A DNA stretch of 64,000 nt, taken from positions 124,001 through 188,000 of the forward strand of contig MNCI01002010.1 of assembly GCA_015680685.1 (NCBI GenBank), given 5' to 3'. This document shows positions 2,341 through 63,324 of the stretch, piece after piece. The translations under genes and the position numbers were made by a program. The stretch comes from Gnetum montanum (Eukaryota > Plantae > Gnetophyta). The number at the start of each line of letters is the position of its first letter. Positions within the stretch are counted from its first letter, which is position 1. Under the pieces are notes generated by a model that saw only the letters and a program-made list of their open reading frames with translations, did no database searches and had not been told where the DNA came from.

Positions 2341-3208
2341 TGAAACACCGTGAAAATTGCGAGTCGGCCTCAGGCAAAGATTCGCAACTCAGGAAAGAGC
2401 ACATGTCAGAATTCCAGAAGGGAGAACAAGGCGGGGCAAATCAAAGAGACAAGAGAACTTTTTTTAGCACTTGAGCGCATATCACTTTGAGCATAGACAT
2501 AGAGAGTAGCACTTTGGCAATTGTTGACAGCATCACCTTCTAGCAAAACCAGAGCACATTTTGCCTCAGCATCGGCAGCAAGAGCAATCGTTCTTTTGGG
2601 GAAGACACAACTTTCTCCATCAGCGATCATTGGTAGTTCTGAGCAGAAATTACCTAAGGTGAGAAAAGCAGATCAAAGATAGTGAGATCATCTTGCGCGG
2701 TTTTCAGGCTATATTGGTCAGAAATAGTTGATCGATAGATGTCATAGCTTGACCTTCCTTGCATCCCGTCTATGGCCTATGAGGTAGATCGGACTTTTGC
2801 TTGTACAGTTTTCTTGTTGTTTTGTGCTTGCTTTACATCAAGTAATCAGGGTCTCCCCATTATAACATGATATACAAAATATACATTCTTCAAATCAAAG
2901 CGTAGATCTTGAAATCATGCGTTTCTCTCGTGTTAGTCTCTTCTTATCATGTTTAGCATTATCATCATTATAATTTATCTATGTTGTTTTCCTCTCATTT
3001 TTTCACCCATATAAATAAAATCGATCCACGAAATATTCACAGTCTCCATCATTTTACTGATTAGTAAGTCCCTGTCTAATCGACAATACCGTTCAGGGCA
3101 CCATGGATTAGTTTTTCCAGCATAGCCCTTGCGCGGATCCGTGGTCAAAACTATGTACATAGATTTTTATTTGGCATTTTTCAGCTACCGACATTTTCTG
3201 TCGTTACA
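2341..3208 (+). repeat. 5' LTR
   Basis: Starts TGAAACACCGTGAAAATTG, matching the LTR start of the second element at 61455 (minus), and ends TCGTTACA. 2508-3208 aligns with about 16551-17251; a hand-aligned 120-bp sample had 8 mismatches. Confidence 0.9.
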
Positions 3209-3214
3209 TTTTTC

Positions 3215-3231
3215 TGGCACTAGAAGGAGGG
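3215..3231 (+). promoter_or_regulatory. Primer-binding site, complementary to the 3' end of plant tRNA-Asn
   Basis: TGGCACTAGAAGGAGGG, 6 nt after the LTR. It differs by one G>A from TGGCGCTAGAAGGAGGG, the complement of ...CCCUCCUUCUAGCGCCA (tRNA-Asn 3' end as I recall it). Confidence 0.8.
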
Positions 3232-3483
3232 CCTGCTTGGCTCTGATCTGTATTTTTTGGGTAGCCCTGTTAGCAATCCGTACCCGAAACCATAGACATA
3301 ATACCTCTAGGGAAGTTTACGGTAAATCATGTGGTGTAGATCGGTCTCAAGAACGATTCCTTTGGAATCCTACAGGGTAGAAAGCCTATTTGCAATCTTA
3401 TTACTAGCCATCTTTTAGATCCCATTATCAATCATCGTTAATCGCTTTCATCAATGCATTCCTTTTACACAACCACAACCACC

Positions 3484-6400
3484 ATGGTCCCTGCCGATTT
3501 GGGTGCCACATTTGTGAACCCTATCGCTGTCACCAGACCAGCTCCTGGTGTAGCAGGACCATTGTGTCGATCACTAAGATTATAGGGGAAAGATCCCATA
3601 TTTACCATCATAACCCCTAAGGAATACCATTTCATCTGCGTTAAGATCCAGGCAAAGCTTGGCCTTAGCCGAGCCGAAATCGAGGTGAAGCGGAATTTCG
3701 AAATGATCCACCGAGGGGGTCACGATTTCAAACCAACAACCTACGACATCATTCCTTTGACCGAACATCAACATGAAATTATAACATAGTTGGTCATGTC
3801 CAAGAGCCAGGCTATGATGGAACCCCAGAATGGGGAGGAAGAACATGATGAGCTTGCGGCCCAGTCCGAGCACTCATTCCACACTCTGAGCCCCCATACT
3901 TACATAAATCCATCATTCCCGCTCAACAGAGAAGCTTCCCCTCTTAACCCACCCATGAAAACATAGATGCATATCCCTATTATTCCAAAAGCCACTGTGT
4001 ATCCATCTGGGTTACAAGTACAAATACCTCACAATAACATGGGGGTGGTTTCATCACCTTGTGTACTCAGCATTCCGGTAGTGGTTCCAGCGACCACTGC
4101 GTCCCATTTCATCCTGCAAGTCCAACCCCACACCATATCAAAAATGCGCCCAGCACAGACTTTATCACTCCCACCCCCTCCAACTCAATAGATCACCATA
4201 GCTGTTCAGCCACAAACATATGTCCAAGAACCTGCCTCAAGTCAGTGGGCCAACCCTGCAGCGCAACATAACCAGTTCGCGGTGTATGGTGTGTAGCCCT
4301 CGGTCGCACCTGCAACGTAGCTTTCACAGGTGGTCCCTCAGTATACCCATCCGTATCTCGTGCAGCAGGTGGCAACCAACCACTCTTTGCAAACTAGTGG
4401 ATGGTGGTCCTCACAAGCCCCCCTACCTATAGGGATCCCTGCCCAACTAGCAACCAGCCAACCTCTCCCTTCGTTTCCATTTCCTAGCGCCCCCCTCCCG
4501 ATCAAACCTCCAATTCCTTCTACACAGACACCTCCATCAAGAGGTCTAGACCAGGCCTTCTAGCTTATCTAGACTCTTACCAAGGAGGTTCAATGCCTCA
4601 AAGCTATTGGTTTGAATACCATTCAGATCATGGACTTTTACCAGGATGATCCTATTTGTCCATCGGTCCCAATGCTGTCGTTGTCGCCAGGGATGTCCCT
4701 CCCTCATTTTACTAAGTATAATGGGGAGGGAGACCCCCATGCTCACCTGGTCACCTTCAGATCTCAGTTCTTGTTGCTACAATAATGTCCACACATGATT
4801 ATCTGAGTCTTTGCTATGTCTTTGATAGGGAAAGCTTTGGATTGGTACAGATCCCTCCCATGCTCTTCCATCTCAACCTTCGAAGAGTTGCTAACCCAAT
4901 TTGTGACCCGCTTCAAATACAACTTAAAGCTGAAATTCACATTGGATCAGCTCATGGGGGTAAAACAAGACCCGCTTGAGCCAGTCCAAAGGTTCATACA
5001 ACGTTGGAATGCTACTTTGAATGAGATTCGCGAGCCAATCGTAGACTCACATCTACTGGCTATATTCAAAGGAGCATTCAATGAATTTATTAAGCCAAAG
5101 ATGTACTAACTTTCACCCAAATCTTTACACTAGGCCTTCGCTCAAGTCAGAAGCATCCAAGATGCTGCAAAGGCTAGCAAAGACCCAGCATATGTCACCT
5201 ACAGGAATGCTCACAACAAGGCCAAAGATAAAGGTAAGGCGATGACAACGACAGTAGCTGCACTGACTGGAGGTGCAAAGAACAAGATGAAAAAGGCACC
5301 TACAACATCGCCTGAGACCACCACTGGTGCCAGGACCAGCCAACATAGAGCTGCACCTGAAGGCTCCCCCCAACCAAAACCAAACTTTGAGTGTAAAGAT
5401 CGTTCAAAGTACGCATCCTTGCCTATAAAACATTCTGAACTGTTGAAACAATTGTTAGTGACACAATACATTCAACCTAAGAAGGTATGAGAGGAAGCTC
5501 TGAAGCATCACAGACGTCACTATGAACTACTAAAGAACCCTTCTTTACCCTTACCTAACGAACCACCAGTTCCTAGATCTTTCAGGCTGGATTGTTTCTG
5601 TGACTACCATCAGCTATGTGATCATGACGAAGATTACTGCTGGGCGTTGAAGGACGATATTCAACGCATGATCGACGAAGGTCATTTAAAACTAGATGGA
5701 AGTAATCCAACGTGCACAGAAAACCAAACATTCCACGTATATAAGGACCTATTAAATGCAAACAATGCTCCTTATACAATCAATGTGGTGAGTATGGACA
5801 GTGAGTGGAAGAGACCACCAAAACAACCTTTTGTTTTGCGTGTGCCCGCTAGCTCACCAAGGGGGCTAGCCATTTCATCGATAGCCAGGGGGGTCTCAAG
5901 GCCGCCCTTCATTATACGGTCACCTTCTCAGATACACCCTCAGTCATGTAGCAACAGTCAAGCCACGGCTTCATCCGCGCCCATACCTAGGGCGCCCTTC
6001 ATTATCAGGGTGCCAAAACCATAGGCTGCTCCTCTCATGCAGGGGCATACCTCTAGTCAAAACAGCCAACCATCACCTCCCAAGCGAAAGGGAGAGGACA
6101 TACCTATTAACACAATGAAAGACCATTTTATGCTCGGCTTCCCTAAGCCTAGGCCCTTGTCCTCTGCATCTTCTTCTCTACCTCAGAAACAGGACAAAGG
6201 TGCAGAAATACAGCCACCTTCTCTTGGCAAGAAAAAGAGCAACCCTTCGACTGACACTGTTCCACCTCAAGAGATCCATCTCTTGGGACGAATGGAAGAG
6301 GACAAGGGAGACAAAAAACCCAGCCAAGAGAAGGACCTCCTCGACACATTTACACAAGTTAAATAGGCTCTCAAGTAAAAAAACACAACGCTAAGCCTTT

Positions 6401-7262
6401 ATGACCTGCTTATGACATCTTGAGAACACCGCGAGGCTATGGTTCACATGCTGACATCCATATCAGTGGATGAAAGCTTTCCAGTAGAGGAGGAAGNCGA
6501 GAACACCACGAGGCTATGGTTCACATGCTGACATCCATATCAGTGGATGAAAGCTTTCCAGTAGAGGAGGAAGTGATACATACTTTCATGTTTCCTCCCG
6601 AAGTTGAGCAATCTAGGCCTATCTTGCTAACCTTTCATGATGAGTCTGTTAAAGATGATCCTGAGAAAGGTCAGGTCACAACTGAACCTATGTTTATCAC
6701 TATCTGGGTCGGTCAATACCAGATCCGGAGGGTGCACATGGACAATGGTGCAGCTACCAACGTCATTTCCTATTATATCATGGATAGGTTGGGACTGGTC
6801 GACCAGATCACTCCCATGACAATGGCATGTGTAAAATCGTTCAACGGGGCATGGGTTCAAGTCAAGGGGATGGTGCGTATCGATTTTGTGGCGGGAGATC
6901 AATTCCTAATAGACGCCACCTTCTTAGTCGTTGAGGAGATGCCAAGGTTCAACTTGATCTTAGGGAGGTTGTGGTTAGCCTAGCTGAGGGCGGTTTCATC
7001 ACCGATACACCAAGAGATATACTTGCCCTATGCCAAAGGGAAGGTCGTGATATGCGGTGGTGAAATCACCGCCAGGATAGTCAGTAACATTGAAGAAGAA
7101 CGGGCTTTAGAGATAGAAATGACTGATGATCAGACCCATCTCCAAACCCCTCAACAAACTGACATCAATGATGGCAATCTAGCCTTGGCCAACCTGCCAT
7201 TTCCGGATGGCAGCGTAGAGGAGTCAGATCATAAATCCTCTCACCTTTACGCAATGCTCAAC
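3484..7262 (+). pseudogene. gag: Gag and aspartic protease (degenerate)
   Basis: Pro/Gln-rich N-terminus. Retrotransposon gag motifs YNGEGDPHAHL and WYRSLP..SISTFEEL...F..RF (about 4720-5100). Zinc knuckle FCDYH....H....CWALKDDIQRMIDEG (about 5595-5680). Protease RVHMDNGAATNVI...FNLILGRLWL (about 6730-6980). Many stops and frameshifts. Confidence 0.88.
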
Positions 7263-7528
7263 GTAAAGGCTGTTAAAAGCCAATTGCGTCTTAATGGTTG
7301 AACAATGACTTTTGTGCGTGTCATCATTTCTTGGCAAGTTATCGCAGCTCATACTTAGCAATTTTATTTCATACAGTTTTATGTTACATTCGTTTTCGGT
7401 TTGTACGCTTGTCATTTTTCATGCTGTTATATTTCTTGTATGCATGATATTCACATTTTCTGATCACCTTAGTATAATTACGCAGAATTATATACCGCTA
7501 CCATTTATGCTTGTTGTATTATGCAAAT

Positions 7529-7680
7529 GGCCCGCAATGGCCTCAAACTATCTGAGGCCTGCAATGGCCTAAAACTAGTCCTCAAATTATGCAACCGCTT
7601 GTGACAGCCCGCAATGGCCTTAAACTATTCCCTGTTTTACATAGAATCATATGATGGCCTGCGATGGCCTTAAACTAGCC
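7529..7680. repeat. Four copies of a ~22-bp motif GGCCYGCAATGGCCTHAAACTA
   Basis: Copies at about 7529, 7556, 7606 and 7656. Confidence 0.8.
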
Positions 7681-9904
7681 ATTACATTCTATCATTATAA
7701 CTTAGGAAAAATCCTTAACAATTACACTCATGTTTTACAGATAAAAACATAAAAAAAAAACAAATTAATTGACATTAGAAACAACCACTAGGTCTTATAG
7801 CGTGTCTTTTCAATTATTCATAAAACAATACTTGACTCCACATCAATAAAATTATGCGTAAATCAGAATTATGCATCTCCTCTACTGCTACTATCACCAG
7901 TATCTTTTAAGTCCAGATCTAGTCCTAATGGATCGTCCTCTAGTGGACCGTTGTTTCTAGGAAGTACTCTTTCATGAAGAATTTCCTCTTCATGAGGTCT
8001 TTTTTCCAACACCGGCTCCATAGGAGGACGCTCTTCATCACTATGTTCTTCCTCTTGTACTGGTTCCTTAGCTTGCTCGTCTTCCCTATCCTCTTTTGGC
8101 ACCTACATACAAATAACATCAAAGTTAGCATGGATAACACAATTAGAAAAATTTTAGATTTAGTCATATAGAAACTTACTCGCGATGCCTCGGCTTCTGT
8201 AGCAAAAGGAAGCTTGTCCAGGCCAGCCCACAGGTGCTTCATAATCTCTTCCTCCATTAGGTCTGACCACACATCATCTCCCAAGGTAGCTCTAGCCTTC
8301 ACATTCCCTTTCTCCATGCTAGTCCAGCAAGGTGGGTCAGGGAAGAATTTAGGGACTGTAGTTTGGCCCCCAGGGAGAGTCATCTCCCTTTCCGGGGACG
8401 CACTTATAGTCACCTGCTCTTCGAATTTCTTGAAGGCTTCTGATGCTCCGATGACATTCAGGAAGACTTCCAGGGATTGGGCTTTGATGGCAGAATCATG
8501 ATAAAGTTTATGATAAGCGATTCTTTCTTGCATATACAGATGTTTGTGGTCTTTCTCCTTCTACCCCCACTCTTACACACATGCACAATAATCCCTCCAA
8601 TCCTAGATTTTCTAAGCTAGGAGCTCTATCTACATCTACTGCTCTACCAACGCTCGACTGGTTTGTACGCTGTGTTTAATGGCAGTCTAATACCAGGAGT
8701 AGTGGATAATAGCGGTACGCCAATCTTCATCCCTCATCTCCCACGCCTGTAGGAATTCGCACCACGATCTTAGGTCTCCGACCTCTTTGGTCAGAGACTC
8801 TGCCCTATGCTCTGCCCTCTGTAGCCATTTCCAGAGGCTCTCATTTATGCCCTTACTCTCCCATAAGGAGCGTGTCGAGCGTAACGCACATTTACGCATT
8901 TCCTCATAAATGTGACGTGGCACAGCTACCTCATCAGATGGTGGCTCCACTGTGTTCAAATCAATGGACTCCATGGAATCCCATCAAATGTGAGCTCCTA
9001 ACAGAAAAAATCATCAATGTTGGTGGCATATTACCACTGTACAATATCACGAACTTACTACAATCACAACCTACTAGCTCCAGGTTCAATGCACACTAGG
9101 CGCTCGATCATGTCACTGACAACACCTTCCATGAAGGCAAACTTGTCAGGAAAGTCTCTCCATGCTCTGCACATGGTGACAGATGTGAATACCTCCTCTT
9201 CTCCTGTAGCGTAATCGGGTTAGAAGCTTTAATTATTAACATAATTCTACAAAATTTCTAACACGTCCATTACCTCTACTGATGACAATGGCGACTTCGC
9301 CAACATCTTCCACCTCCATTTCCTCTTCATGCACTTGGGTCTGTGCGTCGCTGGTTTCAGCAGCTAGGGCCTCCTCATGCACCAGGGTCTGTGCACGGCT
9401 CACGCTAGCAGACGGGGCCTCTTCTTCCAAAACTGAGGCCCCTTCCCCACGACTTACTATCACTGCCCCTGTTTCAGGGATCAACTACTCTATAATTTTT
9501 ATTGGTCACATTACAACAATCTTAGTATATCATTCCAAACATTCTAAATAAACATTGCGTAATACAGTTTTCAATACATCTCCTTCACGCTTACCAGGCG
9601 GAGGCTTACTCTACTGAATTCTGACCGCCATAGTTCGGCCTACGCCGCTCCCAGGCTTTGCAGAGGCCTCAGTTATACGAAGCCTTTTGCTCTGAGCTAC
9701 AGGTTCCACTATTTTCTCCGCCACATGTTTCCCCTGTGAGGCATCACTAGTGTAAGTAGGCATTATCCCACCTACACTATCGAGGCCTCGCAGACGAGAC
9801 GCCACCAATCCTTTGGTCATTATAGATAGTGACTCCCTGATCCCTTTTGGCAGATCCTACCCACAGATAGTTCCAATGATATGGGTAATCCAAGGTTTGG
9901 ACAG

Positions 9905-10600
9905 CTAGTCTCGGTCTTGTTGCACCCATACCCCATTCCTTTGGATGACTAGAAACTCAGCAAAATGACGAAGGCAAGCTATGAAGAAGGTGTAATGCAC
10001 ATTGAAACGAGACTCAAGTTTCTTGCGAAGCTTGATTATCTCATTGCGCAGCCCCTTAGTGAAATAGCTTGCCCAATTGAATTGGGTCCCCTCTTCTAGA
10101 ACCTCCTGCATAGTACGGGTTTGTTCTATAGAAAAGAACTTCCCTTGCGAGAGTGTTTTGGGGAAGGTCTGGGCCAGGAAAAGGGGATAAATTGTCTTGG
10201 TGACGCCCATTTTGAGTCTTTCGCAAAGAAACCCTTTAGCCTCTTTCGAGACCCTTACCCACTTCTCCAGCCACCTCTGGAAGTCGAGGCTTCTCTTCAC
10301 CTTCTCATTTATGGGAAGGCTGTCCGAGGGGACGCCAAATAGATCTTCAAAGAGCTGAGCATCAATGTCAAAACTTACACATATGTGATGTATGCGCATG
10401 CAAAAATGCTCTACCTTTTCATTGAAGGAATTGACCAGGGTCAGCATTTCACTAGCAGGGACATCAGGATTTACAGCTAAAAATAGCTGCATTAGCCCCG
10501 CTACTTAGATCTTGGTGGTCACCGCAACTAGGGCCGCCGAGTGGCTGAGCTAGCGCTGTGCGTCCTTGATGTTGTCGTAGCGGAAGAGGACGGTATTCGC
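9905..10600 (-). pseudogene. Exon 4 core: PMD/Transposase_32-like plant mobile domain
   Basis: AGLMQLFL...LVNSFNEKVEHF...FDIDAQLFEDLFGVP...FNWASYFTKGLRNEI resembles the PMD/Transposase_32 pattern LV..F......F...IT..DV..LLGLP...Y/FxWG....L...L. Confidence 0.5.
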
Positions 10601-11095
10601 CTCATGGCTGGAAATCGTAAGGGTAATCTCCCACGATTCCCTGACTGAAAAGTGTAAAACATAAGTCAAACGAAAACACTATTACGTAATACTCACAATT
10701 CACAACTACACTACGCAATAATCGACTATACAATAGCCTTACCAGGTCCAAATGGCAAGGGAAATGGTGGAAGGTTCCTCTGCATGTTCTCAACAGTGAG
10801 GGGCGGATCCAGGGTCCAATCATCATGTAGCCAGCAATTCTCAAAAGCCTTAGCATAGCAGGTGGGGTACTCACGCATGTCGAAGCCGATCTACCCTATA
10901 ACACCAGTGCTCACGTTGCTAGTTGAGGTAAACACCATTATTGCTGTTTCGGCCCATGATAATGTATCTCCATCTCCAACTAACCTATTTTCATGAATGA
11001 AAACCCTATATCATACCACATAGGCTTATCTTATACTTTGTAAAAACATAGATAATTGACATATAATAATAATACAGTTAACAAAATTTGCTTAC

Positions 11096-11545
11096 CCGCC
11101 TGTGTAGTACACTGTGCCTTGTGGGTTCTGGAAGTAGGTCAAGACATGGTGAGGCATGAATAGCGTGTTATATGCATGATAACAGCTGAACTGGGCCATT
11201 TCCCAGATCCAATTTAAGCACCTTAAGCCTTGGGCACTGGGTTCTCGGTCCTCGGGATGACCAGTATCGATGGCTCTATCTATCAGGAAGGCCAGAATCC
11301 CTTTTGCAGAACCCACCAGTAGGTGCTCCAAAATGGTGCTGGCGATATCGCCGGACAAATAAGACCACACTATGATGCTATAGTTACACAATAAGAACTG
11401 CAGAAACTCCAGTGCACCCCATCAGAACCATATGGCCTTCCCTTACAACTGTGTTTGCGGGGGAGGGACATTGGGGACGATGGGGTTTATACAACACAAA
11501 ACCCCAACAATATCCAAGACAATCAGAATAGGCTTTAGCGTAACG
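11096..11545 (-). pseudogene. Exon 2: FCP1-homology/NIF (HAD-superfamily, CTD-phosphatase-like) domain
   Basis: KPILIVLDIVGVLC...GKAIWF*WGALEFLQFLLCNYSIIVWS...STILEHLL...DTG...LRCLNWIWE...YHAYNTLFMPHHVLTYFQNPQGT follows the NIF motif order LLVLDxxGxL / xRPxxxEFLxF...Y.I.VWS / LKxLxxxW / NTLLxDD....NP. Confidence 0.7.
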
Positions 11546-12083
11546 CTATACAGAAATCCCAATACATAGATCAACTTATAGATTTACATTGGCATAATAT
11601 GTGCAAAAAACATACAAACTACACCTAGTTATCCATGCCAAAATCACTCAAACCCTTGCAACAACGCAAGGTTCGTCCCTGACAACGGTGATAGATGCAA
11701 CCCCAACAAACCCTCGCATTAACCCGAGGTCCATAATTTGAAATATAAATTTATGCAAAAGATACTATGAAAAATAAATACTAAATCAACATAAGCATGC
11801 AAGGAATGGCCTACCAGTTCAAAGGTGTAGGGTCACGCACATCAACCACTGCTTGCTAAACGCGCTCTAGATTTCCTTGCACCTCATCAATTTTGGCCAA
11901 TTTTGCATTCTTCCTTTTGATTTTAGGTGCCATTGTAATAACTTCAGAATTTTCACGGTTTAGCACTTGCAAATCTTTGCAACTCACATGCTTTAATCCT
12001 CTGCTCCTTCTCCTCTTGCTCAGCAACAATTACGAATTCGAATTCACAATAGCCGGTAGCTTGTTCTCACCAAAAACCACTTA

Positions 12084-12090
12084 CTTATAT
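12084..12090 (-). promoter_or_regulatory. Candidate TATA box for the antisense gene
   Basis: Minus strand reads ATATAAG about 150 nt upstream of the ATG at 11933. Confidence 0.3.
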
Positions 12091-12346
12091 GCAAGGAATC
12101 ACCGACTTGATATTCGATTTCAGCGGGACTTCCCTAAAATGGAACCCAAAAACTAGGATATTAATGTGGTGGACATCACATGCACCACTATCCAGAATGA
12201 TGTTAAACTACCACATCTTATCGCCTCGTAATCGGGTAGCATTAATTACAACCTTTTTACAATATTCAAAATTCTATTAGCTTTCCACATTCGACAACAT
12301 CACATCATCTTCCTCCTAATCATTTATGTACTTGGCTATTTTGCAG

Positions 12347-15300
12347 GGCAGACGGGAAATGGATGCAACATTTTCAGCACCTCTAACTTTGACAGGCCCA
12401 TACGGGAGGGTAGTTAGGCAATTCGACCCTACACTAGTAGAAATTAACTCCCCTTTGGATGACGTAACCATAGCCACGTCGAAAACGTCCCCAGAATGGC
12501 CAGAATAGTTAACGCGCATGCTAGATCTGGAGGCTGGGGACATAACCGAAGACCCCCTCACTGACGTTTCTATCGTCATGCATATGGGTGAAGCTAAAAC
12601 GCTTAACGTCAGTTCTTTACTAGACCAAAAAATGCACGATTCTATAAAGCAGGTCCTACGAGACAATATCACAGCATTTGCATGGTCGTATCAGGATATG
12701 CCAAGACTAGATCCCAGGTTAATCTAGCATAACATAATCTTAGACCTGTAAATTAAGCTACGGAAAATCCAAGTAGTTAGACAAAAGGTACGGAAAATTA
12801 AGCTATAAATCACGCTAGCCATGCGTGATAAAATCACCAAAGTGTATCAAGCTGGTTTCATCCGTGCGGTCAATTACTTGGATTGGGTATCTAACATTTT
12901 AGTCATCCCAAAGAAGACTAAAAGCATATGCATCTGCATAGACTTCCGAGATTTGAACAAGGCCACAATCAAAGATAACTTCCCACTAACGAGTATCGAC
13001 CAGCTAGTTGATACAATAGCTGGGCATGCGCTTCTATCCTTTATGGATGGTTTCTCAGGCTATAATCAGATTCACATCAACCTAGAACATCAATTGACTA
13101 CAACATTCATGATGCCCTGGGGCACTTTTTGCTACACTATGATGCCTTTTGGTCTAAAGAACGTCAGAGCAAAGTATCAACAAGCCATGACATACATCTT
13201 TAGCGACTACCTCTTAGGAAGACTAAATAATTATGTAGACGATATAGCTGTCAAGTCCTTAAAGTCAGAAAATCATTCAGAAGACCTAGAGTTAGCCCTC
13301 AAAAGATTCTCCAAATACAAGCTCCAGCTTAACCCAAAGAAGTGCGTATTCGGAGTCAAAATCGGATGCATGCTGGGGTTTGTGGTGTCGGAAAGTGGCA
13401 TACAAGTTGACCCTGATAAGGTCAAAGCCATTGTCGAGTTAATGCCTCCTACAGACCTCAAGCAATTACGCAGGTTACAGGGATGATTACAATTTATACG
13501 CTGATTCATCTCAAGATTAACCGACAAGCTACACCCTATGCAGCATCTGCTCAAAAAATGGGTTAATATCGAATGGACGAAAGATTGCCAACATGCATTT
13601 GACAGCCTAAAACAGGAACTTCAACACTTACCCATGGTTTTCCCGCCACAAAGGGACCTACCATTTTACATTTACCTTGCAACTTTGGACGTAGCGTTAG
13701 CAGAATTACTTTGTCAAAGGAGGGATGATGGGTCAAAACTGCCCATCTACTACTTGAGTCATGCTCTATGTGCATACGAGACAAGGTACAATGAAGTTGA
13801 GCATAATTTCTTAGCATCAGTATTTACACTCAAAAGGTGTAGACATTACCTTTTCCATAGCCAGGTTAACATCATCTATAAAAATAACATCCGTAGGACC
13901 ATTACGCAAAACCTATACGAGAGTAGTAGGATAGCTCCCTGAAAGGCTATCACGATAGAATTCGATCTGCATTATATTGGCCAATCTTCTAAAGAAGGCC
14001 AAGCGATAGCTGACCAGTTAGTAACGTCACCAGTTAATAACTAGGTGACTATAGAACCTGAGTTCCCTAATGAACATGTACATAGTTTAAGCCCTGTCTT
14101 GATAGGCCCCGAGGTGACGTTGTATTTCGACGGAGCTTCAACCACCAAAGGTGGTAGTGCTGCCACTGTTATTATGCTATCGCCTGAGGATGTGCATCTA
14201 CACTCTTATCGATTGACCTTCCCTTACACGAACAATGTGGCAGAGTACAAGGGGCTCCTCAGGGGATTACTAACTGCTAGCGAACTCGATGTTCGACACC
14301 TTGCAATTAGGGGTGATTCGATGTTTGTCATAAATTAGATCACAAGAGTCTACGCCTGCAAGGTTATACATTTACAGCCCTGCTGCGATAAGGCTAAAGT
14401 TCTTCTAAGATGATTTGCGACCATCGATGCCTAGCATGTGCCACGCACGAACAACACACTAGCCAATGCACTAGCTACACTAGCTTTAAACGTGCCTTCA
14501 TATCTTTTTGACACCTGTCCTACATTTATAATAGACTGCACAGATCCTGTCATTCAGGAAATGCAAATATCTTCTCTTCTCAAGGAAAGCACGCCAGAAT
14601 GGTACGACGATATTAAGACTTGCCTCCTACAGGACGAGCTACTGCCTGAATTGACACGTGCATAGAAAGATGCAATTCGCAAGTGGGCTAAGCAATATGT
14701 CATCATAGGAGACAGTACTCTTTGTAGACACTCATTTGACAGTGTGCTTCTTACTTGCGTCGACAAAAACCAAGCACAACATATACTCGGCGAAGTTCAC
14801 GAGGGACTATGCAGAGGCAATGTAGCACCACGGGCTATGGCTCTAAAAATCCATCGCTTAGGATATTACTGGCCGAGCATGGAAAAAGATTTCCTGACAA
14901 AGGTTAAAACTTGTGACATGTATCAGCATCACGTGAATCTCATACACGTGTCACCTATGGAATTACATACAACGCAGATAACATGGCCATTTCAATGATG
15001 GGGACTGGACATCATAGGCCCCATCATGCCAAAATCTTCCACAGATCATAGCTTCATCATTATTGCCACTGAGTATTTCACAAAGTCAGTAGAAGCTGTT
15101 CCCCTACGGAAGATCACATCTCAACAGATTTTCCATTTTATCTTAGACAATATAGTAACCATATTTGGTCTCTCGATGACTATCGTGACCGACAATGGGC
15201 CACAGTTTAGTAGCACGGAAACCAGATCCTTCTGTAATAACCTTGGCATTAAACAATCTTTTTCCTCCCCCTACTACCTGCAAGTGAATGGTCAAGCTAA

Positions 15301-15840
15301 AGCAATGAACAAAGTGATCATCAACCTGCTCAAGAAAATGCTCGATGGCAACAAGAGACAGTGGCATAAAAAATCCTATATGTGCTATGGGCATATCGTA
15401 CTACATGTACGATGGCTACAGGTAGTACGCCCTATAGCCTGGTTTATGGGTCTGAAGCAGCGCTGCCTCTCGAGTTGCAAATTCCTTCTCTGAGAATGGT
15501 TCTCTCCACCATTATAAATGAGGCTCAGCACACCGAGTCTTGGATAATGGATTTGAATTCAGTAGAAGAGAAGTGAATACAGATGCTTGATACTATTGAA
15601 AAGTATCAAGATAAATAGAGACAGAAACATCATCACAACCTTCAGCAGCACCCAATCAAGAAAGGAGATCTAGTTCTCAAGGCCGTGCATGAACCAGTAG
15701 GCAAGTTCTCTATGAATTGGGAGGGCCCTTTCTTGGTGACTGACGCATACAGTAACAGAGCATTCAGACTAGTAGACGTCAATGGTAGTGAATTACCAAA
15801 CCCTGTAAATCATGTATATCTGAAGCAGTATTACATTTAG
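12347..15840 (+). pseudogene. pol: Pol: RT, RNase H, additional RNase H (aRH), integrase (degenerate)
   Basis: RT: CIDFRDLNKA, LSFMDGFSGYNQI, MPFGLKN, YVDD. RH: PIYYLS...ETRY. aRH at about 14110-14490: LYFDGAS...TNNVAEY...IRGDS. INT: HEGLC, GYYWPSM, WPFQ**GLDIIGP, IVTDNGPQF, QVNGQA, WEGPF. Stop at 15838-15840. Confidence 0.95.
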
Positions 15841-16550: not shown

Positions 16551-17251
16551 AGCATTTGGCAATTGTTGACAACATCACCTTCTAGCAGAAACAGAGCACA
16601 TTTCGCCTGAGCATCAGCAGCAAGAGCAATCGTTCTTTTGGGGAAGACGCAACTTTCTCCATTAGCGATCATTGGTAGTTCTGAGCAAAAATTACCTAAG
16701 GCGAAAAAACTAGATCAAAGATCGCGAGTTTTTTCTTGTACAATTTGCAGGCTCTATTGGTTAGAAACAGTTGATCGATAGATGTCAAAGCTTGACCTTC
16801 CTTGCATCCCATATTTGGCCTACGAGGTAGATAAGACTTTTGCTTGGACAATTTTGTTGTTGTTTTGTGCTTGCTTTACATCAAGTAATCGGGGTCTCCC
16901 CATTGTAACGTGAAATCCAAAATATACATTCCTCAAGTCAAAGCGTAGATCTTGAAATCACGTGTTTCTCTCGTGTTAGTATCTTCTTATTGTGTTTAGC
17001 ATTATCATCATTATAATTTATCTATGTTGTTTTTCTCTCATTTTGTGACCCATCTAAATAAAATCGATCCACGAAATATTCATAGTCTTCATCGTTTTAC
17101 TAATTAGTAAGTCCCTGTCTGACCGTCAAGACCGTTCAGGGTGCCGCGGATTCGTTTTTCCAGCATAGCCCTCGCACGGATCCATGGTCAAAACTGTGTA
17201 CACAGATTTTTCTTTGGCATTTTCCAGCTGTCAACATTTTCCATCGTTACA
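16551..17251 (+). repeat. 3' LTR, truncated at its 5' end (PPT and LTR start missing)
   Basis: Matches 2508-3208 and ends CATCGTTACA. No TGAAACAC start or polypurine tract upstream. Confidence 0.88.
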
Positions 17252-24339: not shown

Positions 24340-25420
24340 TATATAAAACACATAGAATAGGTATCAATCTGGGTTTCTTAGTCGAGTCACTATTTAAAGT
24401 TTTCTCCAAGGCTTAGGTTTTTAATTCTATAACTTGATTTTCAGTGTATATTAAGGGTATGATCATTTGAGAAATTATAGAATAGGTGTTAATGAAGGTT
24501 GATTAGTCAAGGCACCATTCAATTTTTATTTGAAGTTTTTTCATATGCTTAGGTTCTTAGTTCTAGAACATAATGTTCAGTCTATATTAAGGGTATGCTC
24601 AGCTAAGAAGCCATAAAGTAGGTGTTAATGAGGGTTTCTTGGTCAAGCTACCCTTCAATGTTTTTGTAATTTTTTTTCAAAGCTTAGTTTCTTAGTTCTA
24701 GAACATAATTTTAACTATGTATTAAGGATATGCTCAGAAGAAAAACCATAAGACAAGTGTCAATGAGGGTTGCTCAGCCAAGTGGCCCTTCAATGTTTTT
24801 TAAATTTTTCTCCAAACATCAATTTCTTAGTTTTAGAACATAATTTTCCGTCTATATTAAGGGTATGCTCATCCAAGAAATCATAAAAAAAATGTCAATG
24901 AGGATTACTTGATCGAGTCACCCTTCAATTCTTTCCTAAATGTTTTTCCAAGGCTTAGTTTCTTAGTTCTAGAACATAATTTTTAGTATGTATTAAGGAT
25001 ATACTCATAAGAAAAACCATAAGACAAGTGTCAATGAGGGTTTCTCAACCATGTGGCCCTTCAATTTTTTTTAAATTTTTCTCCAAAGATCAATTTCTTA
25101 GTTTTAGAACATAATTTTCCATCTATATTAAGGATATGCTCATCCAAGAAATCATAAAACAAGTGTCAATGAGGATTACTTGTTTGAGTCACCCTTAAAT
25201 TTTTTCCTATTTCTTTTTCCAAGGCTTAGTTTCTTAGTTCTAGAACATAATTTCTAGTTTATATTAAGGGTATGATTTTCTAATAAACCATACAAAAAGT
25301 GACAATGAGGGTTGCTCAACCGAGCCATTCTTCAAGTTTTTCTTGAATCTTCTTCAAGGCTTATTTCCTTAGCTTTAGAACACATTTTTTAGTCTATATT
25401 AAGGATTGATTATTGAGGAA
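24340..25420. repeat. ~135-bp tandem array, about 8 units, with a ~271-bp dimeric pattern
   Basis: TTCTAGAACATAAT-like anchor at about 24425, 24561, 24696, 24831, 24967, 25102, 25238 and 25373. Confidence 0.9.
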
Positions 25421-25549
25421 ACCTCAAAAATTGAATAGAAAGCCTAGTATTTATAGGATGAAAAGGTAGGAAACCTCAACCTATAGTAATAGATTTGATA
25501 ATCCTAATAAATTTAAAAAGTGATAGTCCAAATAAATATGATATTTGCA

Positions 25550-26500
25550 ATAGCATTCTAGATCATGAGAGTAGTATCACCCATTGCGACTAGGTAGGTT
25601 TCTCATTCATGCATGTCATTTTTTGAATGATGATTGAGTGACCATGAACTTCCATAGCCTTACAAGATTCCAGATCATGAGAGTAGCATCATGCATTGTG
25701 AGTAGGTAGGTTGCTCATCCATGAATGTCCTTGCTTGCATAATTCTCTAGGGATGAGATACTATGAAATCCCATAGCCTTGTAGGATTTTAAATCATGAG
25801 AGCAGTATCATCCACTATTATTAGATAGGTTGCTTATTTGTGCATGTTCCTATTTTCATGATTCTATAGGAGATGGCTTATATGAATTTTCATAGCATTA
25901 CATGATTCCAAATTGTGAGAGTAGTATCACCCATTATGACTAGGTTGGTTTCTCATTTGTGCATGTCCTTATTTGCATGATTCTATAGGGACTAGCCTAC
26001 ATGAACTTCTATAGCCTTATAGTGTTTTCGATCATGAGAGTAGTATCATCCACTATGATTAAATAGGTTTTTCATCTATGCATGTTCTTGATCGCATGAA
26101 TCTATAGGGACTAACTTACAAAAGCTTCCATAACCTTTCAAGCTACTAGATCGTAAGAGTAGTATTATCCACTATGATTGGGTAGGTTGCTCATTTGTTC
26201 ATGTCCATGTTTACATGATTCTATAGGAACTAGCTTACATGAACTTCCATAGTCTTATAAGATTATAGATCGTAAGAGTAGTATCACCCATTATGACTAG
26301 GTAGGTTACTCTTCCATGCATGTCATTGTTTGAATAGTAATTAAGGAACTAGAAACTTTCATAGTCTTATAGGATTTAAGATCACAAGAGTAGTATCACC
26401 CATTATGTTTAGGTAGGTTTCTCATGTGTGCATGTCATTATTTAAATTATGATTGAGTGATCAAATTACATGAATTGATCTATACTAGTCTATACGTATT
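25550..26500. repeat. ~119-bp tandem array, about 8 units
   Basis: GAGAGTAGTATCA-like anchor at about 25568, 25679, 25798, 25917, 26036, 26155, 26274 and 26386. Confidence 0.9.
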
Positions 26501-28134
26501 AGGTAGAATAGGGCTAAACTATAAACCAGCCATCATCTACATTATGAATAAAGTAATGTGTAAAAAATTTACAATGAAAAAAGTATGAAATAATTAATAT
26601 GCATTGTAGTTGAATAAAAGATGTTAACTTAACAAATAATTCTTGAGAATGATTGAGGTGAGTTAATTAAATTCATGAACTCCTTAGCTTTTTGTAGCAT
26701 GGAAAGGATATAAACTTGAATGTAATTTAGAAAAAAAATGATTGAATTTGGTGTTTTGAATTTTCCTACTAGGCATCAAAGTAATTTGCATAATACAAAA
26801 TATTAGTTATTGCTATATATCCCAAGGAAACAAAAAATAGAAATATGAGGAACCAAAACAATAGTTGAAGAGAATGACCAACCTCCCATTTCCATAACAA
26901 ACATCCCAAATAATAACTTTTTGCCTAATTAATTTGTGATAATTGAAGAAGTTGGTTTGTATTTGTGAACCCATTTAAAAAATTGATGAAAATGTACTAC
27001 TTATGATTAGGGAAAACTGAAAATAGTTTACTTCCATTTATATATTGTAGTTTGCAAGGTTTTACTATTATTTATGCCCAAGTTATTTTTAAAAAATTGT
27101 TATTAACACTCGTCAACAATAAAAAATTTTGCAGTTGGAAAAAAAATTAGCATAATGGATTAGCACAATGGTAACAAAACCACTAGAGATACTATTTTCG
27201 TGCTAGACATGGGTATTAATGCTTTCCTTTGGAAGTTAGAAAACTAGTCATCATTGGCACAAAGTACATGATGTACACAATTTTCTACTCTGATTTTAAC
27301 ATACATGTCATGATATCATACTATATATTGCATGTCATAGTATTTTTTTAAAGTGTGATGATGAGATCAAAATAAGATACAATAGAACAATGTTCAAAAT
27401 TTGTATTTTATATAGTAGTGCACAAATTTAATAAAAAATCATAAGCAAAATGATGCTAATAAGAATAGTCAGACATTTTACATTACTAATATATTCAACA
27501 TGATAGTATTATTAATAGTTTTATATTAGAAAAAATAGATAGTATTTCTTGGTAGGAAACATTGAGAGGAAAGCCAATTTGAAAATGAATTATTTAGTTT
27601 GATCCATAGTTGCTACAATTTAGTATAAGAATCAAAGAAGAATGGTTACTTTTTTGGGTTGATTCTAATCATTCAAAAGATAATCATAAAAAATCAATGT
27701 AAACATGAGAAGAAAATAGGCAAACACACTCCCTTAATTTAGATTTAATCTCTAAATGTGCACTATTTATGCCATGTTCGAGATGTGCAAGCACAATAAT
27801 ACATCTTTACAATGGATTGCAAGAATGATCTATCCTTTAAAATTGCATTGAACACTGAAGAACAATTTGTCATGTATAACCAACAATGAAATTACAAAAA
27901 TAATATGTTGTCTAAAACCAACAATAAACCTCCAAGAATTATTTACTCTTGTGAAAAGAGCAACTAATTTGCAAGAATTATCTATCTTTGCAAAACAACA
28001 ATCAATTCACAAGAATAATGTATCTTGTGAAAATACCAATGAATGGGGCTATTTAAACTCCCATATTTTTTTGATCTTTTTCAAAGGTAATATTGCCTAT
28101 TTTCTACTATCATGTGCTTTATTTTAGGCTGTCA

Positions 28135-28810
28135 TGCTCTCTATAATTATTTGCATGATTCTATATGGATTGACTTACATAAATTTCCATAACCTTTCAA
28201 GATGCTAGATTGTAAGAGTAGTATTACCCACTATGATTAGGTAGGTTGCTCATCTATTCATGTCCTTGTTTACATGATTCTATAGGAACTAGCTTACATG
28301 AACTTTCATAGCCTTATAAGATTACAAACTGTAAGAGTAGTATCACCCATTATGACTAGGTAGGTTGCTCTTTCATGCATGTCATTGTTTGAATAGTAAT
28401 TGAGGAACTAGACTCTTCCATAGTCTTATAGGATTTTAGATCATGAGAGTAGTATCACCCATTGTGTTTAGGTAGGTTGATCATGTATGCATGTCATTAT
28501 TTAAATTATGATTAAGTGATTAGATTACATAAATTGATTTATATTGATCTATACTTATTAGGTAGGTTTCTTAGCCATGCATGTGCTTAATTGAATGGTG
28601 ATTGAGGGACTAGCTTACATGAACTTCCATAGCCTTAAAGAATGTCATATTATGAGAGTAATATCTCCTAATATTTATGCAGGTTCCCTATTTGGATTAT
28701 TCTCTAGGGGTTGGCTAACATGAGCATCTCTATCCTTATAGGTTTCCCAATCAGGAAAGTAATATCACTGAAAGTGATTAGGTTTTTAGTATGTAGGTTG
28801 CTTATTTGTG
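28135..28810. repeat. Second block of the ~119-bp array
   Basis: About 28145-28565 is a close copy of about 26080-26500, followed by more degenerate units. Confidence 0.85.
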
Positions 28811-49880: not shown

Positions 49881-50141
49881 ATCTACTGATTTCATATCCG
49901 AATGTTTCCATTTTGTTATCCAATTTTTTCGGGGTTTGTATCCGTCCTTATTTTGCACTATGATTCTATCTACTGATTTCATATCCGAATGTTTCCATTT
50001 TGTTATCCAATTTTTTCGGGGTTTGTATCCGTCCTTATTTTGCACTATGATTCTATCTACTGATTTCATATCCGAATGTTTCCATTTTGTTATCCAATTT
50101 TTTCGGGGTTTGTATCCGTCCTTATTTTGCACTATGATTCT
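49881..50141. repeat. Perfect 3 x 87-bp tandem repeat
   Basis: Identical units begin at 49881, 49968 and 50055 (ATCTACTGATTTCATATCCG...CTATGATTCT). Confidence 0.97.
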
Positions 50142-50590
50142 ATGTTTGAAAGTTTTATTTTCCAAAACAGACGTGGTCAGAATGATTAGATAATAGAGCA
50201 TTCCTTGAATGAAACTCATTGTATTACGTCATAAACAGGACCTTCTGGAAATGCTGGACATGTACGAAGTATGCGAATATGATTAAAGAAATTGCCAGAT
50301 ATTCTTGGTAAGAGTCGTAGGAAATCCAACAAAATTTGCAGCGATTACACACGATTGCAGGCGGCAAAATTCCCATACGAGTCGAATGAAAACACCTTAT
50401 CGAAATCATTTGTTTGCGTTCACCGAAAGGCCCATTGCAAGCAACACAAGAATAATTCCTTAACGAAGAACTTGAAAAAGAAAAAAATGGATTCAAAAAG
50501 TATTCAAGACACTTTGGGATCCAAAATTATTTGAGACAAGATCAAGATCAAGGGAGGAGGAGTAACGAAGGCAAGGCGGGGCATTATTTC

Positions 50591-51109
50591 CTACTTGATG
50601 ATCCAGAGCTCGTTATCATTTTCCTTATTCCAGGGAGACAGAAATAGGAGACCATCTGCTCCGAGCATGACATTTTGGTGCACATTTTCACCGGTGCGGA
50701 GGGTGCTGTATAATCCGTCCATATTGCGGATACTCCAAGCAATGGAGGCATTGTAAGGACTGGAAGATGAGATCTGTCCCTCGGTCACATCCAGAAAATT
50801 CCCTGCATTCCTGAGGGCCTGCTTTGTGCCTGCGTTAAGCAGAGCAGAAATAGGAAAACGTTCAGAATCGCGACGCTCGCCCCAGAAAAAAGTTTCCCAT
50901 ACCATCCCGTGGCTGCTGCTGTCGCAGGCCACTCCCCTCACGAACCCATCAGATAAAGCTATGCATGTTTCTAAGTCTGTTTTTGATCGGGTTCTCAGCT
51001 CAACTCCCATGGCTATGGGTGCCATCAATGCTGCCACCATAGTCACCGCCACTGTCAGTTTGCTTCTTCTTTCCATCTTTCTTGCGTCCATGGTTTCTGC
51101 TCTGCTCAT
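50591..51109 (-). CDS. EUL/ricin-B-like (beta-trefoil) lectin with N-terminal signal peptide, 172 aa, intronless
   Basis: Basic then hydrophobic leader (RRSKLTVAVTMVAALMAPIAMG). ALLNAGTKQALRN resembles EUL ALVNKATGQAIKH. SIAWS...GLYSTLR...NVHQNV resembles SVLWT...GYRAIR..NIRLNV. LSPWNKENDNELWII resembles LWEW.KGDNQRWKI. Confidence 0.75.
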   Translation of the reverse strand: MSRAETMDARKMERRSKLTVAVTMVAALMAPIAMGVELRTRSKTDLETCIALSDGFVRGVACDSSSHGMVWETFFWGERRDSERFPISALLNAGTKQALRNAGNFLDVTEGQISSSSPYNASIAWSIRNMDGLYSTLRTGENVHQNVMLGADGLLFLSPWNKENDNELWIIK

Positions 51110-51177
51110 GGGGGGTTGTTAAGGTGATGTGCTAGCTGGAGAAGAAAAATTAAATCCAAAACCTTAACAGAGTCCAA

Positions 51178-51284: not shown

Positions 51285-52250
51285 TCAGTTGGAAAAGGTA
51301 ATATTATTGAGAAAGCCTAGTTCGCGACATTGAAGTTGGACATTTCCAGCAATAGAGCATTTCATACCGTAGTCAAATTCATTGTAGTTTGTGTTATGAT
51401 ACCAAGCATCTAGACGACATTTCCAAATAAAGAAGATAATCTCAAATAGGAGGATTTTCCAGGCTTTTTGAAGGTGACGCTTAACACAATCATCTTGAAG
51501 GATACATTGAGGAAAACTAAGAGAATGATTAGGAAGGAAGACTTGGAGAGATTTACACCATTGCCAAATGTATTGAGAGAATGAGCAATCCCAAAAGACG
51601 TGTTGAAAAGAATCATCCGCTTTACAAATGGGGCATTTAGGATGATCAATTCCTAAAAAAAGAAGCCTATGTCCGATGGGAAGACCTTGATGAACCAAGG
51701 ACCAAAACAAAAAACGATGCTTAGGTTGAGCCTTGGAAGTCCAAATCCGACGAAAAATAGTTTTCCACTGGTGATCCTCAAGATGTAAACTCCAACGTCT
51801 ATTTAGAGTGGAGAATTGAAAAGCTTGCGTATGAAACCAAGATCGGGCTTTAGAGATACGTAAAGAGCAAAGAGGGGAACCGTCAGGCCAAAACCAATCT
51901 TCGTACCAAGGAGTATTAGTATGCATCTTATGCACAACAAAGTTGAAAAGGACTTGCTCAAGGTGTTGGTAAATGACAATATCTTGTCTTTGAAACCCCC
52001 ATTTAACTTTCGCATGTGTCCAAGGGAGGGTAGGAGAATCATTTCTAATAGTATATAATTGATCAATATGGTGGAGATTGCGGTCAGCAAAACGATTGGC
52101 CCTATGAGAGAATTCATCGTAAAGACAACCTCTATTCTTTTTAAATATAGGGGACCACCAGATAGAGTGAGTCAACAGAGATTGCAAGCTTATCTGGGAA
52201 GGTTTCCATTGTAACAGATCTCGAAGTTGGCTCCAACAACGCCAAATTTG
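51285..52250 (-). pseudogene. L1 ORF2 C-terminus (zf-RVT region) downstream of the premature stop
   Basis: Same frame as the 1016-aa ORF. Contains W..IW.SK..PK...LFW...H..LP...CPIC...H.FWDC. Confidence 0.9.
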
Positions 52251-55200
52251 CTAGAACCAAAAAGAACCTTTGATCTTCTGAGAGTTTTTACTAATGATCC
52301 AATTGCTCCAATGAGTATTATGCCATCGTTGGTGTGTACCAAGACTAGAGATATTGTGCCTAAAAAGGATCTTCCAAGCTTCATCTCCTTCCATACATCG
52401 AGTCACCCATTTGGAGGCCAAGAGAGTACTCTGGTGCTCAATAGAGGCAAGTCCTAAGCCCCCTTGTTCTTTACTTAAAGTGCAAGTATCCCAAGCTACT
52501 TGATGAAAAGCTTTGTGATCATCCTTATCCCCCCAAAGGAAATTCCTGAGAATGTTGTTAATGCAATGAAAGGAAGATTTGGAAGGAGCCATAAAGAAAG
52601 AGTAATAGACATGAGTGGAGCTCAAAATATGATTAACTACGATAAATCTACCTGCAAGAGATAAGGGTTTAGAAGCCCATTTCAAAGCTTTATGTTTCAC
52701 CTTTTCCACCACATTGTTCCATATGGTAGTGGGAGTAGCAAATAAAGCAATAGGGGTGCCTAAGAGGGTGAAAGGATCAATAGGAGATAGCCACTTGATA
52801 TCAAAGTGATAAGTCCAAGGAGGCATAGGAGAGAAGCTAGATCGAATGGCTTGCGTTTTGTTCCAATTAATCTTAGCTCCTGAGGCTCTATAGTAGATAT
52901 CTATACATTGCAAGGCAGTGTTAAAATTATTATGATCCTTGATCAAAGTGATAAAAGTATCATCTGCAAACTGGCTGTAAACAAGATCATGTCCTTGTTG
53001 TGGAAGAGAGATACCTCCTAGCCGCATAGATTCATTAGAAGATCTAAGAACAGCTCCCAGAGCATCAGCAGCTAGGATGAAAAGATAAGGAGCTAAAGGG
53101 CACCCTTGTCGAACTGATTTTTGAAGCTCAATGACCTTAGAGAAGGATCCGTTAATGCAGATGACTGAAGAGGCCTCTGACAAAACAAGATCAATATGTC
53201 TCTCAAAAGCATTACCTAAGTTGTGGTGTTTGACTATACTTTTTAAAAAGGACCAATCAAGCATGTTGTAAGATTTAGCAAAATCAAGCTTAAGAAGAAT
53301 AGCATTTTGATTAGTGGAAGAAGCCCAGTGCAAGCCCTCAATAGCAGTAACAACATTGTCTAAAATATATCTACCTTGAACAAAACCGGTTTGCTCCTTG
53401 CTTATAAGATGAGTAAGAAAGGGTTTAAGTTTATTAGCTATAGCTTTGGCAATGATTTTATAGATGACATTTAAAAGAATGATAGGGCGCCAATTACTTA
53501 TATTTAGTCGATCTCCTAACTTGGGGAGAAGCTTAATAATACCAGCAGTAATCTGCTTACCAAAGGATCCTTCCCTAAGAGCTTCCTTATATACCCTATA
53601 AACAGTGTCTTGAAGAGTGGGCCAGAATTTCTTAAAAAATTCTGTGGGAAGGCCATCCATACCAGGGGCTTTACCATCGTGGAGTTGTTGAAGAGCATTA
53701 CCAAGATCCTGTTTGGAAAGAAGAGAAGCATCACCAAAGATGGAGCGATTAAAAGGTGTAATAGCTCCTAAACAAGTGTTAACTGCAGTGGGGTCAATCG
53801 CCTCTTTTCGAAAAGTTCGAGAGTAGAACTCAAAGAAGGCCTGAAGAATGTCATCCTTGGAGGTAAAGATATTATCTTCTACTTGAATAGCTGGAATTTT
53901 ATGGGACGGATTCCCCCCTTTGAGGAGACGAAAAAAGCCCTTTGTAGCCTGGTCACCCATGCGAAGCCACGAGAGACAAGCACGGAGGTGAACACCTCTC
54001 GCTTCATAGTGGTCCATTATACGTAGGTTCTCCTTGGCACGTTTCAAACGACTAAAGTGAGCCTCAGTAGCTTCATCTTGATTAATGGTGTTTTGAAGTA
54101 AGGAAATTTCCTCATGAAGGTTGGACTTGTGAGAACTTAGTTGTGAAGCAATCAATTTACCTGCATGTTTGGAAAACCGTTGGAGGCGGGTACAAGCATT
54201 TGTCCACCAATCAATCCAACCGTCATCACCGAGGGGTTTAGGATGCAAATTCCAGATTTGCATCAATAAAGAGCAAAGGGAGTTACTATGAAGAAAGGCA
54301 GTGTTAAAAATATAAAGATCGTTAGAAGAGTATGAGTTCCCAGAGTGGGAAAGAGACCAATGAATAGGATAATGATCTGACAAGACCTGGGAATAATCTG
54401 CTTGGACAGGGGCACCGTTGGTAGAAGTAAAATGAATAAGGGGATTAGTAGATAGATAAACCCTATCCAATCGAGAAGAGATGTAGGAAGCACCAAGTCT
54501 AGCGTTACTCCAAGTAAACCAGTTAGAGGTACTAGAAGAGGAATAGTTTTCATTAGCTTCTTGCAACGTTAATTGACATTTCAACGAGAGCCACTCAGAG
54601 AGCTCCCTGTTGTCTAAACCACCTCTATGTCCTCCTAATTTATCCTTTGGATGCTCAGTCATGTTGAAGTCCCCAGCAATAATCCATTTAGCTGGGGGTA
54701 AATTGTGTCTGAGCCAATTCCACAAGAGCTTCCGATCAGTTGAGTGACAAGGAGCATAAATGGAGACAATCCCTAAGATCTCATTCGCGTACCGTAATCG
54801 AACCCAACTACAATGCCCTAAATTATCACAACCGTGATCAAGAACAGACTCCTGCCACTTATTATGGAGAAAAATTATAGCCCCCCCTTTACCATGTTCA
54901 TGGTGAGTAGAAACATAAGAACTGTTGGGAAAAATGCTCTGGCAGCAAGTTTGAAGATTGAATCCTTGGATTTTAACTTCTTGAAGACAAACAACGTCAA
55001 AGGAATGTCTCTGAATATAATCTCGAACTATATATCTTCTACGAGGGTCTGAGAGACCCCTAACATTCCATGAACAACACTTCATTGGATTCTCATCAGA
55101 TAAAGCTATGCATGTTGCTATGTCTGATTTTGATTGGATTCTCACACCTCCATCTTTGCATGTTTCTATGTCTATTTTTGATTGGATTCTCACAACTCCC

Positions 55201-55301: not shown

Positions 55302-55322
55302 GCTTTAATCCCACCTCTTCTG

Positions 55323-63290: not shown

Positions 63291-63324
63291 GATTGTATAC
63301 CTGGGATTAGTATGAAATGCATGA

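Follow-up and report, generated by a model that had tools for sequence, protein, structure and literature searches.

Does a plant retrotransposon carry a phosphatase-like gene of its own and, if so, what could a domain that has lost most of its catalytic acids do for the element? The question is raised by a 450-nt stretch of Gnetum montanum DNA (11545-11096, minus strand), flanked by an AG acceptor and a GTAAGC donor, in the window, by which we mean the whole 64,000-nucleotide stretch that was analysed. The answer that we favour, with somewhat better than even confidence, is that this exon encodes a diverged NIF/FCP1-type domain of the HAD fold, within a gene running backward through a Tat-type gypsy element, and that this domain, no longer catalytic, serves a predicted spliced, nuclear accessory protein as a binding module.

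The exon is enclosed in an LTR retrotransposon, now decayed and about 14.7 kb long, where it lies between protease and reverse transcriptase (RT); the initial annotation, which had called it the cargo of a gypsy element, was right in this respect. The following parts of the element lie on the plus strand.

2508..3208, plus strand: 3' part of the 5' LTR, ending in TTACA (88.7% identity over 702 bp to 16551-17251)
3214..3232, plus strand: primer-binding-site-like sequence just inside the 5' LTR (sequence inspection)
4420..7301, plus strand: gag and protease, decayed (Retrotrans_gag, E=4.4e-8; Asp_protease_2, E=0.046, under its cut-off)
12359..15830, plus strand: pol with RT, RNase H, archaeal-type RNase H and integrase, decayed (Pfam order)
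16551..17251, plus strand: 3' LTR, the part matching the 5' LTR; its start is possibly further left

The left end of the 5' LTR is probably truncated, and the K2P distance between the two LTR remnants is 0.12. The sequence at 3214..3232 is one that we take to resemble the 3' end of plant tRNA-Asn. Pol matches run in the order RVT_1, RT_RNaseH_2, RVT_3, Integrase_H2C2 and rve, placing an extra archaeal-type RNase H (RVT_3) between RT_RNaseH and the integrase. A second RNase H is the marker of the Tat clade, and its placement between RNase H and integrase is that of Ogre and Retand, according to the accessible text of the Neumann 2019 survey (PMC6317226). An interval of about 5.1 kb separates protease from RT and accommodates the antisense gene. 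At its far end, an acceptor-like sequence ending at 12346 is followed by an ATG at 12359 in the pol frame (12333-12361, plus strand); judging from these signals, pol may be expressed after removal of the entire 5-kb gap as an intron, or it may have a separate transcript. Between the protease and the 3' end of the antisense gene, a 25-nt motif occurs four times (7530-7681; spacings 27, 50 and 50), and its copies are possible candidate binding sites. Within the gag-protease region, a 75-nt duplication, 99% alike and with N between the copies (6422-6573), is likely an artefact of an assembly join.

Other repeats share the window. A LINE on the minus strand (51285-55304) has a 1017-codon open endonuclease-RT frame, with a zf-RVT tail behind one stop, and a 110-nt direct repeat (51001-51110 and 55193-55302, 97% alike) is found at it. 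The integrase 3' end of another, related gypsy element, together with DNA downstream of it, occupies 62626-64000 on the minus strand (78-81% DNA identity). Tandem arrays lie at 24393-26474 and 28117-28674 (periods about 135 and 119 nt), and an 87-nt unit is present in three identical copies at 49881-50143.

The antisense gene, as predicted, comprises the following parts.

11815..11933, minus strand: predicted exon 1, with ATG at 11933 and the basic start MAPKIKRK (GTAGGC donor; in frame with exon 2)
11096..11545, minus strand: predicted exon 2, NIF/FCP1-type HAD domain with degenerate catalytic motifs (AG acceptor, GTAAGC donor)
10743..10984, minus strand: predicted exon 3 (AG/GT borders; frame shared with exons 2 and 4)
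9595..10644, minus strand: predicted exon 4, a long and mostly helical frame (4 in-frame stops versus 18 and 25 in the other frames)
7869..9500, minus strand: predicted 3' exons with acidic low-complexity stretches, a helical stretch and an acidic tail (translations, donor-like sites)

Three GT-AG introns (269, 111 and 98 nt) preserve the frame across exons 1-4, and the introns are poorer in GC than the exons (36% in intron 1, 48-49% in exons 2-4). From these borders we infer that at least four exons would splice into one accessory protein, whose start appears similar to a nuclear localization signal. Exon 3 adds nothing to the NIF profile alignment. No Pfam domain matches the tail exons at 7869..9500, and exon 4 plus tail, in this decayed copy, has zero Pfam matches at E<=1, PMD (PF10536) and Transposase_28 (PF04195) included. 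The Atlas matches of exon 4 are unnamed Streptophyta clusters, with one lead, DUF1985, present on 13% of a single cluster at a score of 0.87, and its single-sequence structure model has a pLDDT of 37, too low to be of use.

The region is represented in RNA. Four RNA runs of the species in which the stretch is best represented gave 197, 58, 1046 and 290 reads on 7300-12400, nearly all of them below 95% identity and hence derived from other copies. These reads extend through intron 2 and none of the four runs has a spliced joint, so that the spliced mRNA stays a prediction. In run X11 the first mate has a depth of 44-77 on the plus strand versus less than 1 on the minus strand (10891-11403), a bias that in most stranded libraries would correspond to minus-strand RNA.

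When its two in-frame stops (residues 36 and 43 of the translation) are read through, exon 2 displays in order the motifs LIVLDIVGVL, GKAIWF-X-WGALEFLQFLL..YSIIVWS, DTG, LRCLNWIWE, NTLFMPHH and NP; motif order, coordinates and stops are exactly as first annotated. The accompanying claim of a NIF/FCP1 domain was to be checked against Pfam, and this check by itself fell short: NIF (PF03031) is the sole Pfam match of the decayed copy, with E=0.22 and 11.6 bits, below the gathering cut-off of 21.8, whereas comparisons built on its relatives are significant. A phmmer search of 1.84 billion representatives returned one match (E=4.9e-5), P0003, which is 28% identical to exon 2 over 150 columns and is itself a NIF protein (Pfam NIF, E=2.9e-15) with DLNG and DD motifs. 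A query-free profile of 25 PF03031 relatives gives exon 2 36.2 bits, versus at most 4.4 in 2000 shuffles, and ranks it as the top six-frame segment of the whole window (E=3.6e-10), and hhalign aligns it with these relatives over 143 columns (97.3%, E=2.2e-11), scores that may be raised by the gathering of the relatives with a two-sequence profile containing the query. The same profile also recovers UBLCP1, CTDNEP1 and SCP1 in the PDB. Exon 2 thus has significant full-length similarity to the NIF/FCP1-homology family, and on these alignments its homology to NIF is very probable. Other searches returned nothing: two word-indexed homologue searches with the exon gave 134 and 12 candidates with none passing, phmmer against PDB sequences had no match, viral and metagenome contigs held no locus related to the exon and viral contigs none related to the RT, and the Atlas gave no reading for exon 2.

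The predicted structure is that of the family as well. An AlphaFold model of exon 2 on the NIF alignment (pLDDT 77.7) has CTDNEP1, SCP2 and SCP1 as its best Foldseek matches (E 5e-4 to 8e-4) and SCP1 (1t9z) as its best VIA-align match (Z=11.8, rmsd 2.5, 129 aligned residues). On the model, the HAD core fold is nearest to SCP/FCP structures; these matches are not independent of the sequence match, because the model was built on an alignment of NIF proteins.

What has become of the active site can be read against SpFcp1, in which Asp170 acts as nucleophile and Asp172 as general base, with Thr243 and Lys280 as phosphate ligands and Asp297/Asp298 as Mg2+ ligands (PMC4436666, accessible part); for SCP1, the available text of PMC7281111 confirms the roles of both motif I aspartates. 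Carried over through the alignment, this catalytic map falls in exon 2 on Asp13, Val15, Ser63, Arg110 and Pro133-His134, whereas among the 25 relatives the same positions are D in 24, N in 24, S/T in all 25, K in 24, D in 24 and D in 25. Motif I thus reads DIVGV instead of DxDx(T/V), and its +2 residue is not the Asn of the DxN subgroup either, being Val here and Ile or Met in the copies seen. The motif II Ser/Thr is present as Ser63. Arg110 replaces the motif III Lys, and GLR is also read in loose ends of other copies. At motif IV the Asp-Asp pair is Pro-His here and Ala-Arg in 94-99.9% of the depth of other copies.

These other copies were surveyed at 11125-11535 in two DNA runs of two organisms and in two RNA runs. 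On these 411 bp, 2210 and 2418 contigs from the two organisms were placed, indicating a many-copy family, although depth gives no copy number. The first motif IV position is Ala in 4304.7/4319.7 (X1) and 20238/20257 (X7) of the depth and in 34/37 and 5/5 RNA reads; the second is Arg in 94% of the depth of both DNA runs and in 32/37 and 4/5 RNA reads, and loose ends from both RNA runs read LFVARHVST. The motif I state comes from loose ends only (6 and 17 contigs, 13 reads), in which KPILIVLDL precedes a codon for Ile or Met; of the 84 difference rows, the 40 compared include none above 11455. At the sites of the two stops, 99%/99% and 79%/86% of the depth departs from the window, so that most other copies lack these stops, which belong largely to this copy.

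An intact catalytic set in other copies would have made the loss a matter of this copy alone, but motif IV Asp-Asp is missing throughout most of the family's depth. The acidic motif first reported as PHH has accordingly to be divided: that no Asp-Asp exists stands, while PHH itself belongs to this copy and most others have Ala-Arg. Methylation decay was considered as the cause of the loss and rejected, the motif IV state being common to the copies. The codons for Val/Ile at motif I +2 and for Ala/Arg at motif IV are a transversion or two changes away from Asp/Asn codons; they are not reached by one methylation-type transition, and the loss therefore predates this copy. It is quite probable that canonical catalysis has been lost across the family. 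With the metal ligands and the general base gone, the domain is most likely no phosphatase, and with most catalytic acids absent in the other copies too, a pseudophosphatase acting as a binding module is the likely function.

If the domain is dead, is it still of use to the element? Among the differences between copies, 12/15 at polymorphic sites are synonymous, versus an expectation of 0.35 for transitions (P=5e-4), with a polymorphic site defined as one having a share below 70% in at least one DNA run among the 40 of 84 rows, a threshold that was chosen after the table had been inspected, and with sites that are not independent. Sites separating this copy from most others number 25, of which 10 are synonymous and 15 are not (Fisher P=0.02). 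The opposite-strand frame that shares third positions scores 11/15, so that this selection test establishes the codon phase but does not discriminate between strands. The mostly synonymous differences indicate that the domain has probably been kept by selection, and we regard this as moderate evidence for purifying selection on it.

This bias argues against the best surviving alternative, namely that the exon belongs to a passenger, either a gene captured from the host or one belonging, as an accessory, to a nested DNA transposon, that was amplified with the element and is decaying without benefit to it. Introns, as found in accessory genes of DNA transposons, speak for such a passenger. So does its distribution: 0/79 other Tat-like loci have a NIF domain (best E=0.74) and 0/79 match any antisense exon, where the loci are defined by 40-59% RT identity and many of their contigs are too short to reach the region before the RT; among the other copies, no contig spans the stretch from the exon to pol. 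Yet the same Ala-Arg state is found in two organisms, Pfam found no transposase in the protease-RT gap, and a repeat search of the gap found no convincing terminal inverted repeats bracketing the gene, only short inverted repeats at chance level. We consider a passenger unlikely. As to where the domain came from, the direct host origin put forward in the initial annotation stays a proposal: in a tree of 25 rows, from which the fragment P0027 was left out, exon 2 is unplaced, with a branch length of 7.5 changes per column. Plant host members do exist in the DxN subgroup (P0016; Streptophyta clusters), and derivation from a host gene is likely in the long run.

Could the domain instead be an active enzyme of a non-canonical kind, acting without Mg2+ on some substrate? 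Metal-independent haloacid dehalogenases have the same fold and, at motif I +2, no acidic residue; they are among the fold matches of the model. Asp13 and Ser63 are kept here, the motif I Asp is also kept in the other copies seen, and motif III has a basic residue. On the other hand, the domain no longer has its general acid/base or either of its Mg-binding aspartates, residues that bind metal and activate water in SpFcp1 (PMC4436666, accessible part), and the second motif IV Asp is present in all 25 relatives. Without Asp-Asp, canonical holding of Mg2+ is impossible, and we think it rather improbable that the domain still catalyses a reaction.

At the other extreme, the fold might serve as a structural spacer or self-association module that has no phosphorylated partner. 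The very long branch, the change of the phosphate-binding Lys and the loss of the metal site would all fit a mere spacer, which would, however, have no need of the pocket Asp and Ser or of the basic motif III residue that are kept. This makes a spacer improbable, and the kept Asp, Ser and Arg suggest that the pocket is still in use. Finally, a chance resemblance of non-coding DNA, for which the weak Pfam score and the empty word-indexed and PDB searches could be cited, is refuted by the independent phmmer match, hhalign and the shuffle-controlled profile score, with the motifs in order over 143 columns, and is extremely improbable.

The binding-module reading can be put as a sequence of steps. 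The antisense strand would express an accessory protein, whose spliced exons would supply a basic start, the dead domain, a further domain made of helices, and tails of acidic and helical character. Its introns would persist through retrotransposition because the gene faces against the genomic RNA, reverse transcription copying the RNA of the opposite strand. While the family diversified, purifying selection would have kept the domain. Asp, Ser and Arg, still lining its pocket, would let it dock onto a host partner, possibly a phosphorylated one, and docking might help transcription of the element or shield it from silencing. Both the nuclear role and the host partner are put forward by analogy, and so is the transcription or anti-silencing role, the sources for which concern the extra ORFs of Tat elements (accessible parts of PMC4408406, PMC11963269 and PMC7264820) and the PMD-PP7L module (PMC7156037). 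A tie to the Pol II CTD comes through the fold only, as the nearest kin are the uncharacterised DxN subgroup and not SCP/FCP1. We thus offer only tentatively the fuller version, in which the pseudophosphatase of a fixed, spliced antisense gene docks onto phosphorylated host factors of transcription or silencing, such as the Pol II CTD. If the domain does read phosphorylated host proteins, this would add a new type of counter-defence for transposons in very large plant genomes.

Within the NIF family (PF03031), the DxN subgroup is the closest kin, sharing the LIxLD, F-L-x-F-L, VWS, L-x-x-x-W, NTL and NP blocks, and the nearness to DxNG proteins noted at the outset is borne out by the Asn at motif I +2 in 24 of the 25 relatives. 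Unlike them, the element domain has lost not only this Asn but also the Lys of motif III and the two aspartates of motif IV, each kept in 24 or 25 of the 25. Fungal DXNXT NIF proteins have already been termed candidate pseudophosphatases (PMC13216928, accessible part); compared with these, the element domain has lost more. SCP1/CTDSP, FCP1, CTDNEP1, UBLCP1 and the pseudophosphatase Tim50 have the same predicted fold at 9-20% identity, but the element domain differs from them in having no DxDx(T/V), and no BRCT or ubiquitin-like domain was seen with it.

Among retrotransposons, the extra ORFs of Tat elements are the nearest counterpart, being likewise accessory genes kept by a Tat-type element and antisense to gag-pol. 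Those described in the available parts of PMC4408406, PMC6317226 and PMC11963269 encode PMD, PMD with a coiled coil, or Transposase_28; they sit 5' of gag or 3' of pol, whereas the present gene lies between protease and RT and, unlike them, has several predicted introns. Extra genes of plant LTR retrotransposons mostly lack a recognisable domain, and a HAD fold with an altered pocket offers a handle on binding. Supplement 4 of Neumann 2019 (PMC6317226) gives 12 extra-ORF domains, each seen in at least five elements, without NIF among them, in a survey that covered, by its accessible text, only the regions up- and downstream of the polyprotein. Literature searches, judged by their listings and the opening lines of abstracts, gave no paper on a NIF/FCP1 domain in a retrotransposon. 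Ogre likewise has gag-protease apart from RT-RH-aRH-INT, with the aRH between RH and INT, but its gap is an intron averaging 274 bp in the accessible text (PMC6317226), as against about 5.1 kb with a gene here, so that the short-intron organization of Ogre does not describe this locus. A probably selected gene with predicted introns in the protease-RT gap is a layout undescribed in the available text of the Tat surveys compared, and it raises the question of how pol is expressed.

Two further systems join transposons with enzyme folds. In Arabidopsis, MAIN/MAIL1 with PP7L and the PMD-PP7 fusion MAIL3 offer an analogy, a transposon-related domain acting in gene regulation with a phosphatase-fold partner (PMC7156037, accessible part); that fold is PPP and not HAD, the genes belong to the host, and exon 4 has no PMD match. 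Closer in kind is the AlkB-type m6A demethylase ORF of Phalaenopsis gypsy elements, as described in the accessible text of PMC9289625: here, too, an enzyme domain that can still be recognised has become fixed as additional cargo, in a gypsy family related to Ogre, but that domain retains its cofactor residues and shows activity in vitro, whereas the NIF domain has lost its catalytic ones. Set beside these systems, the antisense gene of the Gnetum element is a real family-level Tat accessory gene that is new in both cargo and position.
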